A stretch of DNA of 32,000 nt from Patescibacteria group bacterium. Its GTDB lineage: Bacteria > Patescibacteriota > Patescibacteriia > 2-01-FULL-39-33. Under the pieces are notes generated by a model, which was not told the origin of the DNA, searched no databases, and saw nothing but the letters and a program-made list of their open reading frames with translations. The DNA lies in assembly GCA_041662745.1 (NCBI GenBank), contig JBAZRV010000003.1:30001-62000 (forward strand). Direction: 5' to 3'. Below are positions 26,587 through 32,000 of the stretch, piece by piece. Each line of letters begins with the position of its first letter. Positions within the stretch are counted from its first letter, which is position 1. The translations under genes were made by a program, and so were the position numbers.

Positions 26587-27822
26587 ATGCGATTTACCGA
26601 AACCGTCAAACTGTCTTTTTCTGTTTTGCGCACCAACCGAACGCGCAGTTTTTTGACTTCTTTGGGAATTATTATCGGTATTGCCGCCGTTATTGTGATT
26701 ATTTCCGCCGGCGCCGGAGCACAATCGCTTATCGTTAACCAATTCAACGCTATCGGCACTAATTTAATAGGTGTTCTTCCCGGCGCCAGCGATGAGAACG
26801 GTCCGCCCGCTTCCGCTTTCGGCATTATTTTGCAGACGCTCAAATACGAGGATGCTCAAGCAATTGCGCAAACAATACCGCACGCCAGCGCCGTCTCTTC
26901 CTATAATACCGGGGTGGCCACGGCATCTTATCAGGGCGCTAAAGTGGATACCACTTATTACGGCGTTATGCCCGATTACGTGTTGGTTGAGGATACGGGA
27001 GTGGAGACAGGGAGATTTTTCGGGGATGACGAGGACCGGGGCAGTTCAAAAGTTGCCGTATTGGGCTGGCAGGTGGCGCAGGATTTGTTTGGCGGTCAGG
27101 ATGCCGTGGGTCGCAAGATAAAAATCGGCAAGGAATTTTTTGAAGTGATCGGGGTAATGCGCAAGCGCGGCGTTTCCGGCTTCCAAAACAATGATAATAT
27201 TATTCTAATACCGGCGCAGACCGCGCAAAAAATAATGCTGGGCGTGCGTCATGTAAATTTCATCCGCGTTAAGGTTGATCAGCAGGAAAATCTGCCGCAA
27301 ACCGTAGAAGACATCCGTTTTTTGTTGCGCGATCGCCATAACTTACTGGAATCAAAGGTTGATGATTTTAATATCCGCAACACAGCCGATGCTATCAAAA
27401 CCTTAACCTCCATTACCGACGTGTTGAAGTTTTTCCTGGCCGCCATCGCCAGCATCTCTTTGCTGGTCGGCGGCGTGGGCGTAATGAATATCATGTTAGC
27501 TTCGGTCAATGAGCGCGTTCGTGAAATCGGTTTGCGCAAGGCCGTGGGCGCCAAGCCCGGTGATATTATGGTGCAGTTTTTGGCTGAATCGGTTACCGTC
27601 ACGTTGGCCGGAGGGGTTATCGGCATTATTATCGGTTCACTGATTTCGGCGTTGGTTGCCGTAGTCGCCAAATACCTGGGCTATGATTGGGATTTGGTGG
27701 TCTCGCCGCTGTCAATATTTATGGGTTTTGGCGTGGCTTTTGTCGTGGGTTTGATTTTTGGCATTTATCCGGCCACTCGCGCGGCCAAACTTAACTCCAT
27801 TGAGGCGCTAAGGTGGGAATAG
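26587..27822 (+). CDS. ABC transporter permease (MacB_PCD plus FtsX-like domain)
   Basis: A TM helix is followed by a large extracytoplasmic domain and then three C-terminal TM helices. The FtsX-type motif GLRKAVGAKPGDI is present. Confidence 0.9.
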   Translation: MRFTETVKLSFSVLRTNRTRSFLTSLGIIIGIAAVIVIISAGAGAQSLIVNQFNAIGTNLIGVLPGASDENGPPASAFGIILQTLKYEDAQAIAQTIPHASAVSSYNTGVATASYQGAKVDTTYYGVMPDYVLVEDTGVETGRFFGDDEDRGSSKVAVLGWQVAQDLFGGQDAVGRKIKIGKEFFEVIGVMRKRGVSGFQNNDNIILIPAQTAQKIMLGVRHVNFIRVKVDQQENLPQTVEDIRFLLRDRHNLLESKVDDFNIRNTADAIKTLTSITDVLKFFLAAIASISLLVGGVGVMNIMLASVNERVREIGLRKAVGAKPGDIMVQFLAESVTVTLAGGVIGIIIGSLISALVAVVAKYLGYDWDLVVSPLSIFMGFGVAFVVGLIFGIYPATRAAKLNSIEALRWE

Positions 27823-27866
27823 GGGAGTTAATGTTCAGTTGCTAACGGATCGGCTTTTAGTTAATA

Positions 27867-27893
27867 GATCGCTTATTTTTAGGCGATTTTTTT
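27867..27893 (+). terminator. Rho-independent terminator of the ABC operon
   Basis: Stem atcgc (27868-27872) pairs with gcgat (27883-27887), followed by TTTTTTT. Confidence 0.65.
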
Positions 27894-27943
27894 AATTTAA
27901 TTTTGTCTAATTTTACGTATTTATTGATAATTAAATTAGAAAA

Positions 27944-27952
27944 AGTGGATAA
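27944..27952 (-). promoter_or_regulatory. DnaA-box-like 9-mer matching 8 of 9 positions
   Basis: agtggataa is the reverse complement of TTATCCACT. It lies 5 nt upstream of the -35 hexamer. Confidence 0.3.
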
Positions 27953-27957
27953 AACAC

Positions 27958-27986
27958 TTGACAAAATATTTAAGGTGTGATATAAT
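27958..27986 (+). promoter_or_regulatory. Consensus sigma70 promoter with an extended -10
   Basis: TTGACA (27958-27963), exactly 17 nt of spacer, then TGaTATAAT (27978-27986). This is the best promoter match in the window. Confidence 0.7.
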
Positions 27987-27992
27987 AGTTTA

Positions 27993-28940
27993 TTCAAGAT
28001 GATGGTTGTGGATAACTGAACAAAATTCAATTATTGACAATATCATCTTGTGGCAGTTTAAAAGCTGTTTTAAAAGAGTTCTTCGGAGCTCTTTGTCAGG
28101 GCGGCATACGGCTTATGTCGTGTGTCGCCCTTGACAAAGGTTTCTGAAAAGCGATGGCTAATTCTTGTTGATGGCTGTTTTTTTGAGTGGACATAGTCCG
28201 AACAGTATCGGCGAGAACGGTTGCAACGCAGAAATCCAGGGTTCTTGGGTGGTATCGGCTGAAGGTGCCAATCCGACTTCGGGTCGGTCGCAGCTAATGC
28301 TTAAATAAAAAAATCGACCGAAGGCCGATGCCCCCAAGAATCCGACCTAAGAATCAGAAATGCACTTTAACGGCTGACTTAATTACGGTCAGCCCTCCAC
28401 TTAAGCTCAGGATAAATCATGATCTTAACGGGAGCTTGAACATTACTAAGCATTCATCTGCGGCAGTTTGTCGCCGCATCGATATGATTAAGGCGTATGC
28501 TTGTCCGCCTGATCAAGTCCAAAGCCAAAAGCCGAGGATTTTGGGAGGAGATTGAGCTGAAGAGGGGGCATGGTTTGAAATTATATATTTACCAATCGCC
28601 TTAATTCACTTCTTCAAGTCTTGATTATATCGATGCGGTAGCAATGTTTGGCCGTCAAGCAGGCGGGCAAACGCGCGCCGCAAGCACTTTCTTTGAAAGA
28701 AGAATTTCCCCACCGTCGGGCCATTATCCCGCCGGATCGGTAGACTTCCTCCTTTCTCTGGGGAGGCGTCATGTAACCGCATGCGCCTCCCCCACACGCC
28801 TCAGACAGTATGGTTCGAGGGCGCATAATCAAATCCTCACAAGGGAAGCTTGGTTTTACGCTTACGGCTTAAGTACTGTTTGAGGCGTGTGTTTTAAAAC
28901 GGCATTTCATTCTACGAGCAATCTCGTGAAGGAGGGTCTG
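27993..28940 (+). ncRNA. Candidate large structured RNA or long structured leader of unknown family
   Basis: The region has no credible ORF and is richer in GC than its flanks. Strong helices include 27995-28003/28042-28050, a C(UUCG)G hairpin at 28074-28093 and a ~20-bp hairpin at 28091-28139. Further helices are a 20-bp long-range pairing 28239-28259/28324-28343, 28372-28378/28388-28394, 28394-28408/28554-28568 and a 13-bp hairpin at 28760-28792. G.U pairs favour the plus strand. The ends are estimates. Confidence 0.5.
28004..28015. repeat. Left copy of an inverted 12-mer that contains a perfect DnaA-box 9-mer
   Basis: ggttgtggataa; within it, TGTGGATAA (28007-28015) is the reverse complement of TTATCCACA. 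Confidence 0.5.
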
Positions 28941-28943
28941 TCT

Positions 28944-29126
28944 ATGGTAATTCAATGTTGCGTTTGCTCCAAGGTGCGTTCGGCCGGTACTTGGGAAGTC
29001 CGGAGCATCCCTCCCGGGGAGCAGGTTTCCCACGGCTATTGCCCAGAATGCGCCGAAAAAGTGTTTCAGGGCATAGAGCGGGAGTTGGCCGCGCGACAAA
29101 AGAAGGAGGAGACCGTCAATGGCTAA
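28944..29126 (+). CDS. Zinc-ribbon miniprotein of 60 aa (CxxC ... SHGYCPEC)
   Basis: The SD GAAGGAGGG lies 7-8 nt upstream of the ATG. The sequence reads MVIQCCVCSKVRSAGTWEV...VSHGYCPECAEKVF. The track's GTG at 28887 has no SD. Confidence 0.7.
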   Translation: MVIQCCVCSKVRSAGTWEVRSIPPGEQVSHGYCPECAEKVFQGIERELAARQKKEETVNG

Positions 29127-29319
29127 AGGTAAGTGTCCGGCTTGCTTCAAAGTTGAAGTAGCGCCGGGACAATGGAAGAATGTCGCCTTGCCGGTCGGCG
29201 AGGAAACATTTCCCCAATATTGTCCAAAGTGTGCCGAACACAACGCTTATGTTCGGGGGAGCATCCTGGCATCCAAGAGGTTGGCGGATGCGGCCCTGGC
29301 CTCGGCGTCGGGCAAATAG
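29119..29319 (+). CDS. Zinc-ribbon miniprotein of 66 aa, a paralogue of the preceding gene
   Basis: The SD GAAGGAGGAG sits at 29102-29111. The gene overlaps the upstream ORF by 8 nt. The sequence reads CPACFKVEVAPGQW...FPQYCPKCAEH. Confidence 0.7.
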   Translation: MAKGKCPACFKVEVAPGQWKNVALPVGEETFPQYCPKCAEHNAYVRGSILASKRLADAALASASGK

Positions 29320-29326
29320 TTCAATG

Positions 29327-29353
29327 AAGGAGGAGGCTGCGCGCTTCCTCCTT
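29327..29353 (+). terminator. Terminator-like 11-bp hairpin
   Basis: aaggaggaggc (29327-29337) pairs with gcttcctcctt (29343-29353), including one G.U pair. The U-tract (TAAAATT) is weak. Confidence 0.5.
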
Positions 29354-29369
29354 TAAAATTAATTTTGAT

Positions 29370-29381
29370 TTATCCACAGCC
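29370..29381. repeat. Right copy of the inverted 12-mer that contains a perfect DnaA-box 9-mer
   Basis: ttatccacagcc; TTATCCACA sits at 29370-29378. The reverse complement matches 28004-28015 at 11 of 12 positions. A TTGACA hexamer lies 9 nt downstream of the 9-mer (29388-29393). Confidence 0.5.
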
Positions 29382-29475
29382 AGACTCTTGACACTATATT
29401 GTTTTTATAAAAATTTAAGATATAATTTTATATTAAGGGATGACACTAAGCGTCAGGCATTTTCAATCGCACTTT

Positions 29476-29511
29476 CCTAAAAACATTTTTAGGATCACAC
29501 TTAAGTGTGAT
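29476..29511. promoter_or_regulatory. Two abutting 18-bp palindromes (operator-like, or paired RNA hairpins)
   Basis: cctaaaaa-ca-tttttagg occupies 29476-29493. atcacacttaagtgtgat, a perfect 18-bp palindrome, occupies 29494-29511. Confidence 0.6.
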
Positions 29512-29539
29512 TTCGAAAATTCTCGTCGCGTCTTCTCCA

Positions 29540-29566
29540 AGTCCCGCCCATGTGGCGGGACTTTTA
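29540..29566 (+). terminator. Rho-independent terminator
   Basis: Stem agtcccgcc (29540-29548) pairs with ggcgggact (29554-29562) across a 5-nt loop, followed by TTTAATT. Confidence 0.65.
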
Positions 29567-29588
29567 ATTGGCTGATTTTTTTGATTAG

Positions 29589-29597
29589 TGTTATAAT
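29589..29597 (+). promoter_or_regulatory. Extended -10 element TGTTATAAT
   Basis: This is an exact TGnTATAAT, 21 nt upstream of the ATG at 29619. Confidence 0.45.
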
Positions 29598-29618
29598 TTA
29601 ATCAAGCAATCAAATCCT

Positions 29619-29996
29619 ATGTCGCTTAAGCAATTAATCATCATCGTTGCCATTGCCACATTATTATGCTGGGCCAGCTGGTTGCTGGTCATTTTTGAGG
29701 TGGATCCGACGACTGCCGGCTTTTACGGCTTGCTGATTTTTTATGCCAGCATGTTTTTTTCTTTGCTCGGCTTATTTTTTTTGATCAGTTTCGGTTTCAG
29801 GAAGATTTTCAACAAGCTGGAAATGGAATACAGGCTGGTGGGCATGTCTTTCCGCCAATCGTTTTTCTTTGCCCTGGCAGTCGTCGGTTTCTTTTTTTTG
29901 CAAAGCAAGGATTTGCTGACTTGGTGGAATAGCATTATGTTGCTGGCGGCTCTGGTGATTTTGGAATTTTTCTTTTTGAGTTATCGGAAAAAGTAA
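29619..29996 (+). CDS. Hypothetical 4-TM membrane protein
   Basis: Four hydrophobic helices are present. The gene has its own promoter-like element and a strong terminator. Confidence 0.7.
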   Translation: MSLKQLIIIVAIATLLCWASWLLVIFEVDPTTAGFYGLLIFYASMFFSLLGLFFLISFGFRKIFNKLEMEYRLVGMSFRQSFFFALAVVGFFFLQSKDLLTWWNSIMLLAALVILEFFFLSYRKK

Positions 29997-30008
29997 GGCA
30001 ACAGAAGG

Positions 30009-30033
30009 CGTCCCTTGTCGGGACGTTTTTTTT
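30009..30033 (+). terminator. Rho-independent terminator
   Basis: Stem cgtccc (30009-30014) pairs with gggacg (30020-30025), followed by TTTTTTTT. Confidence 0.85.
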
Positions 30034-30073
30034 ATTTGGCATTATAATGTTTCTTGTTATTTTTACTCTCTCA

Positions 30074-30280
30074 TGTCATTCCTGGCTTGACCAGGAATCC
30101 AGGTTTTCCTGTCATCCTGAGGCGCACCTGCCTGCCGGTAGGCAGGGACGGGAATCCAGGTTATTTTTATCCGTCATTGCGAGCGAAGCCGTAATCGGCG
30201 AAGAGCGGCAATCTTTCAGTGAACATAAATGTGGCCTTCAATATTGCTTCGTTCCGCTACGCTACACTCGCAATGACGAA
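30074..30280. repeat. Cluster of three palindromic repeat units of the GTCATYSC family
   Basis: The first unit is tgtcattcctggcttgaccaggaatccagg (30074-30103). The second is tgtcatcctgagg...gggaatccagg (30110-30160). The third is gtcattgcgagcgaagc...gcaatc (30173-30213) with its partner attgcttcgttccgctacgctacactcgcaatgacg (30244-30278). The track ORF at 30047-30295 is built from these units. Confidence 0.8.
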
Positions 30281-30287
30281 AAGCAAT

Positions 30288-30317
30288 TTGACTAAGTTAA
30301 GATAAAATAGCTATAAT
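30288..30317 (+). promoter_or_regulatory. sigma70-like promoter of pheS
   Basis: TTGACT (30288-30293), an 18-nt spacer, then TATAAT (30312-30317). Confidence 0.55.
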
Positions 30318-30338
30318 ATATTCATATTAAGCTATTTT

Positions 30339-30361
30339 TCTCCCCCTTACGAAGGGGGAGA
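30339..30361 (+). other. 10-bp G/C-core hairpin in the pheS leader
   Basis: tctccccctt pairs with aagggggaga around the loop acg. It lies 25 nt upstream of the pheS ATG and has no U-tract. Confidence 0.5.
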
Positions 30362-30385
30362 TTAAGAGGGAGTTATAGAGAAACT

Positions 30386-31444
30386 ATGAAAGAAAAACTT
30401 AGCCAATTAAAGGCGCAATTCACCGAAGAATCGGCAAAGGTCAAATCAGCCAAAGAGCTGGAGGAGCTGGAGAGTAGATTTTTGAGTCGTAAAAGCGGAC
30501 TGCTGACCGGTATCATGAAGGAGATCAAGGATGTGGCCAAGGAAGAGGTGGCGGAAATCGGCGCTTTGGCTAACGAAACCAAGGAATATATCGTTGAGGG
30601 ACTGGCAGCGCTTAAGGGCAATTTGGCCGGCGCCGGCTCTTTTAATTTTGATTTTACCGTGCCCGGCCATAAGCCGCCGGTCGGACATTTGCATTTATCA
30701 ACCATTGCCATCCGCGAAATTGAAAGCATTTTAGAGCCGTTGGGGTTCAAGCGTGTTAGGCATCCTGATATTGAATGGGATTATTATGCTTTTGAAACCC
30801 TGAATATGCCCGGAGATCATCCGGCGCGCGATGATTGGGAAACTTTTTTTATTGATGAAGCGCCGATTAAGATGAATTTGCCGGCTAATTCCAAAAAACT
30901 GGTCAAAGAGGGGAGACGGCTGCTCACTCCGCACACTTCCAGCATTCAGGTGCGTGAAATGGAAAAAGGCGAACTGCCGATTCGGATGATGAATATTTCC
31001 AAATGCTATCGCCGGCAGATTGATGTTTCCCATGTGCCGATGTTCCATCAGTTTGAAGGACTGGTGATTGACAAGGGGATTAACATCACCCATTTGAAAG
31101 GCACGATTGATTATTTTGTTAAGAAATTTTTCGGCGAAGATCGGGTTATTCGTTTGCGTCCGCATCATTTCCAGTTTACCGAACCGAGTTTTGAGGTGGA
31201 TATTTCCTGCGGTTTGTGCAATGGCGCGGGTTGCAAGATGTGCAAAGAGGGCTGGCTGGAACTGGCTGGCGCCGGCATGGTGCACCCCAATGTCCTAAAA
31301 GCCGGAGGAATTGATCCGGAGAAGTATTCCGGGTTTGCTTTCGGTTGGGGTGTGGAGCGATGTTTCTCAATGAAATCGGGACTTAATATTGATGATTTGC
31401 GGTTGATGTATAAGAATGATTTGAGGTTTAATGAACAGTTTTAA
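30386..31444 (+). CDS. pheS: Phenylalanine--tRNA ligase alpha subunit
   Basis: The motifs GDHPARDDWETFF, RPHHFQFTEPSFEVD, GAGMVHPNVL and GFAFGWGVERC are present. Confidence 0.95.
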   Translation: MKEKLSQLKAQFTEESAKVKSAKELEELESRFLSRKSGLLTGIMKEIKDVAKEEVAEIGALANETKEYIVEGLAALKGNLAGAGSFNFDFTVPGHKPPVGHLHLSTIAIREIESILEPLGFKRVRHPDIEWDYYAFETLNMPGDHPARDDWETFFIDEAPIKMNLPANSKKLVKEGRRLLTPHTSSIQVREMEKGELPIRMMNISKCYRRQIDVSHVPMFHQFEGLVIDKGINITHLKGTIDYFVKKFFGEDRVIRLRPHHFQFTEPSFEVDISCGLCNGAGCKMCKEGWLELAGAGMVHPNVLKAGGIDPEKYSGFAFGWGVERCFSMKSGLNIDDLRLMYKNDLRFNEQF

Positions 31445-31468
31445 GATTAATATCATAATTAGTATTAT

Positions 31469-32000
31469 ATGGGTAACCAAATTAAAAACAACAAATTAAA
31501 ATATCTATTTTGGCTATCAAGTATAGCCATAATATTTTGGATAATTTTTGGTCTCGGCTTGCAAAGGGATTATAAGAACTGCGGTAGTGCAATCTCTAAA
31601 ATTTCCTTTTTTGGAATAGTTTTGTATGAGTACGATAATCCGTGTCCTGTTACAAATACAAAAACACCAGAATTAAGTGACTTAGATATATTTTCGATAG
31701 AAATTAATAGGCATCCAAATTTGAGAGGATTTCCATTTTCTGAAGTTGTAGATTTTTCTCGTTTTGATAAAAGTAATTTGAAAGCTATTTGGATGATTAT
31801 ATCATTTGTTTCATTATTGAATTTGATTTTTTATTTTGTTTTTTTTCAAATACTATTTAAAATTTTAGATAAGGTTAGTAACAATTATAGAAAAATAGTT
31901 TTTATAATTTTGATGATTACGATTTCTCTTATATTTTTAATTATATCATCTATAAATGCCAAATATTCTTTAAGTTATTTAACTTTCTATTCAATTTTAA
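31469..32000 (+). CDS. Hypothetical membrane protein, very AT-rich, with the 3' end outside the window
   Basis: I translated an open frame from the ATG at 31469 to the window end (MGNQIKNNKLKYLFWLSSIAIIFWIIFGLGL...). It has several hydrophobic helices. It is absent from the track because no stop is reached. Confidence 0.5.
   Translation, partial: MGNQIKNNKLKYLFWLSSIAIIFWIIFGLGLQRDYKNCGSAISKISFFGIVLYEYDNPCPVTNTKTPELSDLDIFSIEINRHPNLRGFPFSEVVDFSRFDKSNLKAIWMIISFVSLLNLIFYFVFFQILFKILDKVSNNYRKIVFIILMITISLIFLIISSINAKYSLSYLTFYSIL

Follow-up and report, generated by a model that had tools for sequence, protein, structure and literature searches.

Evidence for a lineage-restricted large structured RNA in Candidatus Buchananbacteria and related Patescibacteria

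A candidate family of large plus-strand RNAs

Our analysis revealed evidence for a large structured RNA encoded in a 32,000-nucleotide (nt) stretch of DNA, called the window in the following, from a metagenome-assembled genome (MAG) of a Patescibacteria group bacterium (GCA_041662745.1, contig JBAZRV010000003.1, positions 30,001-62,000 of the forward strand). Comparison with homologous loci shows that the predicted transcript represents a conserved family of plus-strand structured non-coding RNAs with a strong promoter motif and modular domains. The family is a genuine new one, without detectable relation to known classes and with a narrow phylogenetic range. We lean towards reading the region as the gene for a previously undescribed, lineage-restricted, autonomous large structured RNA of Candidatus Buchananbacteria and related Patescibacteria.

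Homologues were collected in three ways: GTDB genomes were scanned with PheS as anchor, which yielded 79 loci, metagenomes were scanned for a DNA pattern of the invariant core GATNNNANNNRGGYGTAWGCTTGTC, and the gathered loci were searched with nhmmer and three covariance models. About 23 distinct loci (loci are denoted by L numbers) proved homologous to the large RNA, in MAGs of Candidatus Buchananbacteria and related Patescibacteria. In a nucleotide alignment with the closest relative, L002, identity is 98% in the promoter, 87-92% in segments of the RNA and 93% in the non-coding stretch downstream, compared with about 84% in housekeeping neighbours, 70-73% in two miniprotein genes that follow the RNA and 36-65% in ordinary spacers, which speaks for selection on the RNA. 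L002 is entirely without window positions 28148-28425 (278 nt).

The sigma-70 promoter in front of the element, which a first-pass annotation of the same DNA had rated the best of the window, was verified, with its 17-nt spacing and upstream TG, as the top-scoring site of the scanned range 27000-30500, and TTGACAAAAT...TATAAT is kept across nearly all homologues. The same annotation had described the sequence behind the promoter as GC-rich and free of credible open reading frames (ORFs), and both descriptions hold. The longest ORFs within 27990-28940 reach 75-79 amino acids (aa) without any Pfam match, and 5-34 stops interrupt every frame of every homologue. GC content is 44-55% inside the RNA region versus 27-29% in the flanks, and the count of 34 G+C among the 60 positions of 28081-28140 is exact. 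The minimum free energy of 27993-28940 is -397 kcal/mol on the plus strand versus -284 +/- 8 kcal/mol for dinucleotide shuffles (z -13.4). For the minus strand it is -323 kcal/mol, and plus is favoured by 75 kcal/mol. A global closing helix contained in the minimum free energy fold (28060-28075/28892-28907) was rejected, as its 3' partner is not conserved in homologues.

The features of the predicted RNA are the following.

27958-27986, plus strand: sigma-70 promoter, TTGACA-17 nt-TG-n-TATAAT, 12/12 match, extended -10 TG
27993-28899, plus strand: predicted structured non-coding RNA; fold z -13.4, no Rfam match, no conserved ORF, about 23 homologous loci
27993-28147, plus strand: Block A, with P1, P2, a linker, P3 and P4
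27995-28003/28042-28050, plus strand: P1 hairpin, 9/9 pairs, with a perfect DnaA box (28007-28015, minus orientation) in the loop
28053-28068, plus strand: P2, a small hairpin followed by the single-stranded linker CUGUUUUAAAAG, read by eye
28074-28093, plus strand: P3, UUCG-capped hairpin, 8/8 pairs
28083-28147, plus strand: P4, long hairpin of 29 pairs, covariation in 14 sequences
28148-28462, plus strand: expansion site 1, lineage-variable, of which 28148-28425 is absent from L002
28463-28648, plus strand: Block B, the most conserved domain, with helices B1, B2 and B3
28470-28494/28618-28642, plus strand: B1, closing helix of 25 bp
28499-28501/28555-28557 plus extension, plus strand: B2
28559-28565/28609-28615, plus strand: B3
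28649-28792, plus strand: expansion site 2, 144 nt in the window, with a hairpin (28760-28792) and the motif CTTCCTCCTTT (28745-28755)
28793-28837/28844-28891, to 28895, plus strand: C2, terminal hairpin of about 37 bp followed by UUUU, covariation in 12 sequences

Modular architecture

The domains follow one another in a modular order, Block A, expansion site 1, Block B, expansion site 2 and C2. Blocks A and B are found throughout the whole family and C2 only in a closer clade of 12 loci. Compact versions of the RNA (L007, L100, L089) comprise about 490 nt. The minimal form of the predicted RNA is about 450 nt long and ends in a predicted canonical terminator: in L005 a discrete gene of that size runs from a consensus promoter to C2 and UUUUAUUUUUUU (U7), without a Zn-ribbon ORF, and the corresponding U tract of the window is UUUU. 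C2 is probably a leaky terminator or marks where the RNA ends. The first-pass annotation had missed B1 and C2, which are the largest of the conserved helices.

Within Block A, the proposed P1 helix stands with all nine pairs and covaries. P2 changes from CAGU/ACUG to CAGG/CCUG in L005, and the linker CUGUUUUAAAAG is nearly invariant as read by eye, with no formal count. The UUCG-capped hairpin P3 likewise pairs as proposed, and compensatory variants are visible in the alignment (L002, L005, L082, L098, L100). The long hairpin originally placed at 28091-28139 is real and larger than described, extending to 28083-28147 with 15 pairs that show double changes. P3 and the outer six pairs of P4 (28083-28088/28142-28147) use the same nucleotides and are thus mutually exclusive, and both show compensatory changes; UUCGG/UCUGA of the window, for example, becomes UUAGGG/CCCUAA in L082 and UUUGAGG/CCUUAA in L098. 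The overlap may reflect a switch between two conformations or an intermediate of co-transcriptional folding.

Expansion site 1 ranges from 4 to 316 nt in the close clade, is longer in some distant loci and measures about 315 nt in the window. L006 has an insert of comparable size, and the homology comparison between the two rests on two sequences only. Two helices that had been proposed here (28239-28259/28324-28343 and 28372-28394) do pair in the window but lie inside the lineage-specific insert of about 300 nt that L002 lacks.

Block B is a junction domain of three helices and contains the invariant sequences GGCGUAUGCUUGUC and CUUGAUUnUAUC and, in six close homologues, also GGAGG. A conserved small ORF behind this GGAGG was considered and rejected, since its start codon is not conserved. 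The covariance model of Block B, R1, detected eight further distant loci. A proposed closing helix at 28394-28408/28554-28568 forms 13 of 15 pairs in the window but had to be given up, because it overlaps the conserved B2/B3 (28555-28565) and cannot form in L002. Expansion site 2 varies between 0 and 921 nt in homologues and contains ORFs in L006 and L101. Its hairpin at 28760-28792, also proposed earlier, pairs in the window but belongs to a variable insert common to the closest relatives only.

Covariation and strand polarity

The conserved helices are supported by covariation, and substitutions in homologues compensate for one another instead of breaking the helices. In Block B (15 sequences) 92.6% of the cells were paired versus 33-45% in controls with slid partners, and 18 pairs had changed on both sides. 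The corresponding values were 95.5% versus 33-41% with 17 such pairs for C2 (12 sequences), 93.8% versus 42-51% with 15 for P4 (14 sequences), and 86.9% versus 40-59% with five for P1 (11 sequences, hand-picked arms). The observed covariation score was reached in 0 of 500 shuffles for each of the four, counts that overstate the significance because the sequences are related and the family is narrow (about 23 loci); this point speaks against the reading we favour and is addressed by the slid-partner controls, which retain the relatedness of the sequences and are still cleanly separated from the observed pairing.

The pairing is also strand-specific, as had been claimed from G.U pairs in the window. 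Each Block B sequence contains 3-7 G.U pairs, and the covariance models score higher on the plus than on the minus strand for Block B (171 vs 30 bits), C2 (107 vs 45 bits) and Block A (100 vs 36 bits).

Comparison with known RNA families

The first-pass annotation had been unable to match the RNA to a known class, and this was upheld. Rfam 15 gave no match for the whole window at gathering thresholds, and in E-value mode positions 27800-29650 gave chance-level matches only, far below gathering (E 0.045 or worse). Nor did Rfam match the element in the compact homologues L005, L007, L013 and L109. The families covered by these searches include OLE, GOLLD, ROOL, HEARO, raiA, RNase P, tmRNA, SRP, 6S, group I/II introns and T-box. 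ARAGORN found neither tRNA nor tmRNA in the window. The literature searched contained no description of this RNA or of any large structured RNA from the candidate phyla radiation (CPR).

Zn-ribbon miniproteins downstream of the RNA

The RNA is followed in the window by two small genes and a hairpin.

28944-29126, plus strand: miniprotein 1, 60 aa, CCxC...W...SHGxCPxC Zn ribbon and C-terminal helix; Shine-Dalgarno (SD) sequence GAAGGAGG at 28929-28936
29119-29319, plus strand: miniprotein 2, 66 aa, start overlapping the stop of gene 1 (ATGGCTAA)
29325-29355, plus strand: terminal hairpin, 13 pairs, 5-nt loop, interrupted A/T-rich tail, called by a terminator scan

As the first-pass annotation had it, these are two SD-equipped Zn-ribbon genes. 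Both SDs are strong, the genes overlap by 8 nt and are, by this arrangement, predicted to be translationally coupled, and their products are paralogues (44% identity, E 3e-8). The source annotation lists them as 'MAG: hypothetical protein WC668_02745' and 'WC668_02750 [Patescibacteria group bacterium]'. The protein database holds one orthologue of miniprotein 2 (P0002, 78% identical), and the contig that carries it, L002, is syntenic with the window. The terminal hairpin was found where described, is conserved in L002 and is likely the operon terminator. The 11-mer CTTCCTCCTTT occurs twice in the window, in expansion site 2 (28745-28755) and in the 3' arm of the terminal hairpin (29344-29354). 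It is complementary to the SD GAAGGAGG of both miniprotein genes and may therefore sequester the SDs.

A profile of 15 miniproteins from our loci retrieved more than 217 stand-alone homologues of about 60 aa with the signature CCxCxK...W...SHGxCPxC, from Patescibacteria, Hydrogenedentes, Nitrospirae and Proteobacteria. Four Cys in two knuckles are invariant and W and S-H-G conserved, consistent with a putative Zn ribbon; miniprotein 2 keeps the Cys and lacks SHG. Neither miniprotein matched a Pfam or NCBIfam family, and the literature searched for the motif contained nothing. The AlphaFold2 (AF2) model of miniprotein 1 (predicted local distance difference test, pLDDT, 90) shows a four-stranded Zn ribbon and a long helix, without significant structural neighbour in the PDB.

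The view of a self-contained unit of RNA plus miniproteins fits the window but not the family as a whole, as the miniprotein genes are facultative: they are present in 16 of the 22 scorable loci and absent from six. The RNA-bearing loci without Zn-ribbon ORF (L005, L006, L009/L094, L013, L079, L098) represent six lineages that keep Blocks A and B, and the promoter where it can be aligned; in L005, L006, L009 and L098, 29-35 of 35 positions of Block B are still paired. Conversely, all miniprotein genes found in the RNA-bearing clade (16 loci) lie downstream of the RNA. Within the clade, gene content shows a link between RNA and miniproteins that is facultative but exclusive. In other phyla, a structured leader in front of the miniprotein genes was sought and rejected, with neither conserved structure nor a Block B match. 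In a proteobacterial MAG (L107 4001-4222, L108 2352-2573) a miniprotein homologue lies immediately 3' of dnaA, which concerns a single lineage and may be coincidence. In several other loci from outside the Patescibacteria (L105, L111-L113; one from a Nitrospiraceae MAG) the miniprotein gene is divergent from an ABC-transporter operon.

In some lineages a second domain is associated with the locus. This domain of about 100 aa (..GFxLKFENG..YVP..IYxxIVDxLLAAPP, here FENG..LLAAPP) is restricted to the clade, with only seven proteins among 5.8 billion. L007 (3975-4424), L089 (minus strand, 1205-1654 in reversed coordinates) and L101 carry it as a fusion to the Zn ribbon, and in L006 (3157-3516) it stands free inside expansion site 2. 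It matched no Pfam or NCBIfam family, and its AF2 model (protein P0122, pLDDT 77) had no significant PDB neighbour.

DnaA boxes and small RNA D

The locus further contains DnaA boxes and a second, small RNA, which we call D.

27944-27952, minus strand: DnaA-box-like 9-mer TTATCCACt, 8/9, just upstream of the -35 hexamer at about -45
28007-28015, minus strand: perfect DnaA box in the P1 loop, at about +15
29370-29378, plus strand: perfect DnaA box TTATCCACA, upstream of the promoter of small RNA D
29421-29426 (-10) and about 29433-29568 (RNA), plus strand: small RNA D, separately promoted, about 135 nt, rod-like body with covarying pairs
29539-29563, plus strand: intrinsic terminator of small RNA D

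In the 32 kb of the window, perfect TTATNCACA sites occur only at 28007-28015 and 29370-29378. Most loci carry perfect boxes at the same two homologous positions (L002, L003, L006, L007, L024, L079, L089, L101 and others), and such boxes are rare elsewhere in each locus of about 13 kb. The box at 27944-27952 keeps its G-GGAT core in close homologues and is perfect in L003. The stretches around the two perfect boxes of the window form an imperfect inverted repeat (27994-28020/29365-29391, 27 nt, 78% complementarity) that brackets the unit. A panhandle between the 5' and 3' ends of the RNA by means of this repeat was rejected; since across species the 9-mer is the only sequence common to both sites, a DNA-binding site is favoured over RNA pairing. 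The conserved boxes suggest that the large RNA and small RNA D may belong to one DnaA regulon. The window contains no dnaA gene.

Small RNA D has its own conserved TATAAT and is part of the conserved locus, not of the large RNA. Its distribution exceeds that of the large RNA, with conservation in at least 15 loci (L003 4810-5027, L005 5269-5453, L010 4988-5262, L013 5352-5504, L017 5084-5282 and further sites). Its 5' GGGAAGG is complementary to a 3' CCUUCUC, an inner hairpin (29465-29481/29488-29512) covaries, and 15 of the 24 predicted pairs have changed on both sides among 15 sequences. Small RNA D had no Rfam match. Directly after its terminator and before the gene for a 125-aa membrane protein lies another conserved, TG-extended promoter (TTGGCT-18-TATAAT, 29568-29597). 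With those of the large RNA, of D and of the membrane-protein gene, three strong promoters therefore follow one another within 1.7 kb.

Genomic setting

The RNA locus is situated between a MacB/FtsX-type ABC permease gene (26587-27822) and the gene of the 125-aa hydrophobic protein (29619-29996), with pheS at 30386 on the 3' side of the latter and all neighbouring genes on the plus strand. The PheS of the window has its nearest relatives in Candidatus Buchananbacteria MAGs. Wherever flanks are available, each homologue of the RNA is followed downstream by the 125-aa membrane-protein gene and pheS. The membrane-protein gene, whose product matched no Pfam or NCBIfam family, is also present in relatives without the large RNA (L019, L075). 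An origin from phages, plasmid-type elements or viruses was rejected: in a blastn search against phages the sole match was to 54 nt of the promoter, and a scan of viral contigs gave no match to the large RNA.

In distant relatives (L010, L013-L018, L109) a UvrD-like helicase gene, found at 70-2022 in the window, directly precedes the RNA. In the lineage of the window about 25 kb appear to be inserted between the two, with genes for RmuC, a NiFe-hydrogenase cluster, glycolysis genes and MacAB. Inside the helicase gene of L013 (3487-3588) there is a near-threshold match to Rfam n00280 (60.3 bits vs a gathering threshold of 65.2), described as 'C. difficile sRNA included into helicase gene', which probably reflects conserved coding sequence. 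The stretch behind pheS (31400-32000) is extremely AT-rich, with 15-35% GC.

Autonomous RNA or leader of the miniprotein operon

The element is most likely an autonomous, DnaA-gated RNA or ribonucleoprotein (RNP). Transcription would start near 27993, where the -10 hexamer places the 5' end. Most transcripts would end at the U-rich tract after C2, the presumed 3' end, while a fraction would read through into the ORFs, give rise to the two coupled Zn-ribbon miniproteins and stop at 29325-29355. The RNA itself would be functional, most likely as an abundant scaffold that binds proteins in an RNP, and the miniproteins, in some lineages also the fused domain of about 100 aa, would be facultative RNA partners. 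DnaA at the boxes at about -45 and +15 and at the D promoter would tie expression to the state of replication initiation. Several points weigh against this picture. Both ends of the RNA, its abundance and termination at C2 are deduced only from promoter and terminator motifs, and the window has no more than UUUU after C2. In distant relatives Block B abuts the SD of the miniprotein gene, which also fits a cis-regulatory role. The domains resemble a string of hairpins and not a compact tertiary fold, and a conserved long-range closing helix is absent.

It is possible, though in our view doubtful, that the RNA serves chiefly the miniprotein operon, as an exceptionally long 5' leader acting in cis. 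Block B and/or C2 would then control translation or read-through, for instance through attenuation at C2, a ligand, or the Zn-ribbon protein binding in an autoregulatory way. A miniprotein gene does lie directly downstream in the 16 loci mentioned, a scan brought out no convincing promoter between C2 and the ORFs, and in the distant L109 and L014 the SD AAGGAG directly adjoins the 3' strand of B1. In its form C2 is attenuator-like, its U tract being weaker where ORFs follow; the pairing of P3 and outer P4, which exclude each other and both covary, is switch-like, and the CTTCCTCCTTT motifs resemble an anti-SD. However, a leader should always stand upstream of the gene it regulates, and in six of the 22 scorable loci no miniprotein ORF lies downstream; these lineages keep Blocks A and B all the same, in four of them with a well-paired Block B. 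The RNA of L005 is a discrete gene from promoter to terminator, the ORFs of L006 are located upstream and not downstream of C2, and the miniprotein genes of other phyla do without a conserved structured leader. A length of 450-950 nt with a 25-bp closing helix would also be atypical for riboswitches or protein-binding leaders.

Other explanations appear far less probable than the leader. RNAs of the CPR can be divergent, and the strong promoter, conserved position and variable expansion sites resemble those of stable RNAs, so that Rfam might have missed a divergent RNase P, tmRNA, 6S, SRP, OLE, GOLLD, ROOL or group I/II intron; we regard this as very unlikely, as neither the window nor the compact homologues gave a match even with permissive filters, ARAGORN found no tmRNA, and the family, unlike the universal housekeeping RNAs, does not extend beyond one clade. 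To our knowledge the RNA also contains none of the conserved sequence motifs of RNase P, tmRNA or SRP, as none were recognised by eye. Slightly less credible still is a signal at the level of DNA, either an origin-like region of DnaA boxes or a mobile element bounded by the 27-nt repeats, to which the inverted repeat itself, the inverted orientation of the perfect boxes and the AT-rich flanks might point. An oriC was rejected, because GC skew (positive) and gene orientation (plus) do not switch across the locus, which has only 2-3 boxes. An insertion sequence or miniature inverted-repeat transposable element was rejected as well, because all relatives have the unit as a single copy at the syntenic position, despite the repeat, whose arms have only the 9-mer in common in other species. 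Moreover, DNA palindromes cannot explain strand-specific G.U covariation. A decayed protein-coding gene that folds well by chance has a next to negligible probability. ORFs of 75-110 aa do span expansion site 2 and C2 in the window, L002 and L091, but the stops in all frames of all homologues, together with the lack of a Pfam match for the two longest window ORFs (no six-frame protein-database search was made), led us to reject it; in addition, indels are not multiples of three (278 nt), and substitutions are compensatory by pair and not patterned by codon.

Relation to known systems and implications

One of the closest known systems is OLE RNA (Rfam RF01071), a multi-domain, lineage-restricted RNA of about 600 nt that forms a ribonucleoprotein with OapA/B/C (PMC12265935, PMC7936274). 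Both are large, multi-domain, highly conserved, lineage-restricted bacterial RNAs whose biochemistry is not established. OLE has partner genes adjacent to it, including one for a membrane protein, and here small protein genes and the 125-aa hydrophobic gene lie downstream. Unlike OLE, the present RNA occurs in a different phylum, gave no cmscan match in sequence or structure, and has its own consensus promoter with DnaA boxes; its partner genes are facultative, that of the membrane protein is found without the RNA as well, and an RNP is only putative. GOLLD and ROOL (0.5-0.8 kb, function not established; PMC12286853) are similar in size class, in their many covarying helices and in their variable peripheral domains. 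They are typically associated with phages or prophages and form cages, whereas the present RNA is chromosomal, syntenic and absent from viral contigs, looks like a series of hairpin domains and had no Rfam match to either family.

With protein-binding or riboswitch leaders, such as autoregulatory leaders of ribosomal proteins, the RNA shares the position upstream of small Zn-ribbon genes in most loci, the proximity of SD and B1 in its distant members, and the presence of both a conserved junction and alternative pairings. Unlike typical leaders, it is 5-10 times longer, has a 25-bp closing helix and is kept without a downstream ORF in six lineages. DnaA boxes have a regulatory role in promoters of the dnaA, nrdAB and sda type. 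The promoters described here resemble these in having, at conserved positions, TTATCCACA boxes beside the promoter and shortly behind it; the predicted regulated products, however, are a large non-coding RNA and a small RNA instead of a protein. The miniproteins, finally, are like small stand-alone Zn-ribbon proteins of the COG4896/YlaI-like type, a label assigned by the Joint Genome Institute to two of their homologues, in length (about 60 aa), two CxxC knuckles, a beta-hairpin ribbon and a helix. Without a Pfam or NCBIfam model or a significant PDB neighbour, and with their signature CCxCxK...W...SHGxCPxC, they nevertheless constitute a family of their own.

Structured bacterial RNAs of more than 400 nt are rare beyond rRNA, RNase P, tmRNA and introns, and OLE, GOLLD, ROOL and HEARO have each opened new biology. 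CPR bacteria are tiny, mostly uncultured symbionts with poorly understood biology and few recognisable regulators. The family described here offers a covariation-supported RNA class with defined domains, insertion-tolerant sites, candidate protein partners and a candidate regulator, DnaA, and it is amenable to in vitro testing without culturing the organism. If the link to DnaA is true, the replication initiator would control non-coding RNAs here, which would be unusual. A more far-reaching interpretation, which we put forward as speculative and rather unlikely, is that the large RNA, the Zn-ribbon and FENG..LLAAPP proteins and small RNA D form a DnaA-gated RNP module that couples replication initiation to another process, or provides feedback on DnaA. 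It is hinted at by the boxes conserved at both RNA promoters and by the one miniprotein homologue directly after dnaA. Such a module would represent an RNA-based cell-cycle device in genome-reduced CPR bacteria, with no known counterpart.

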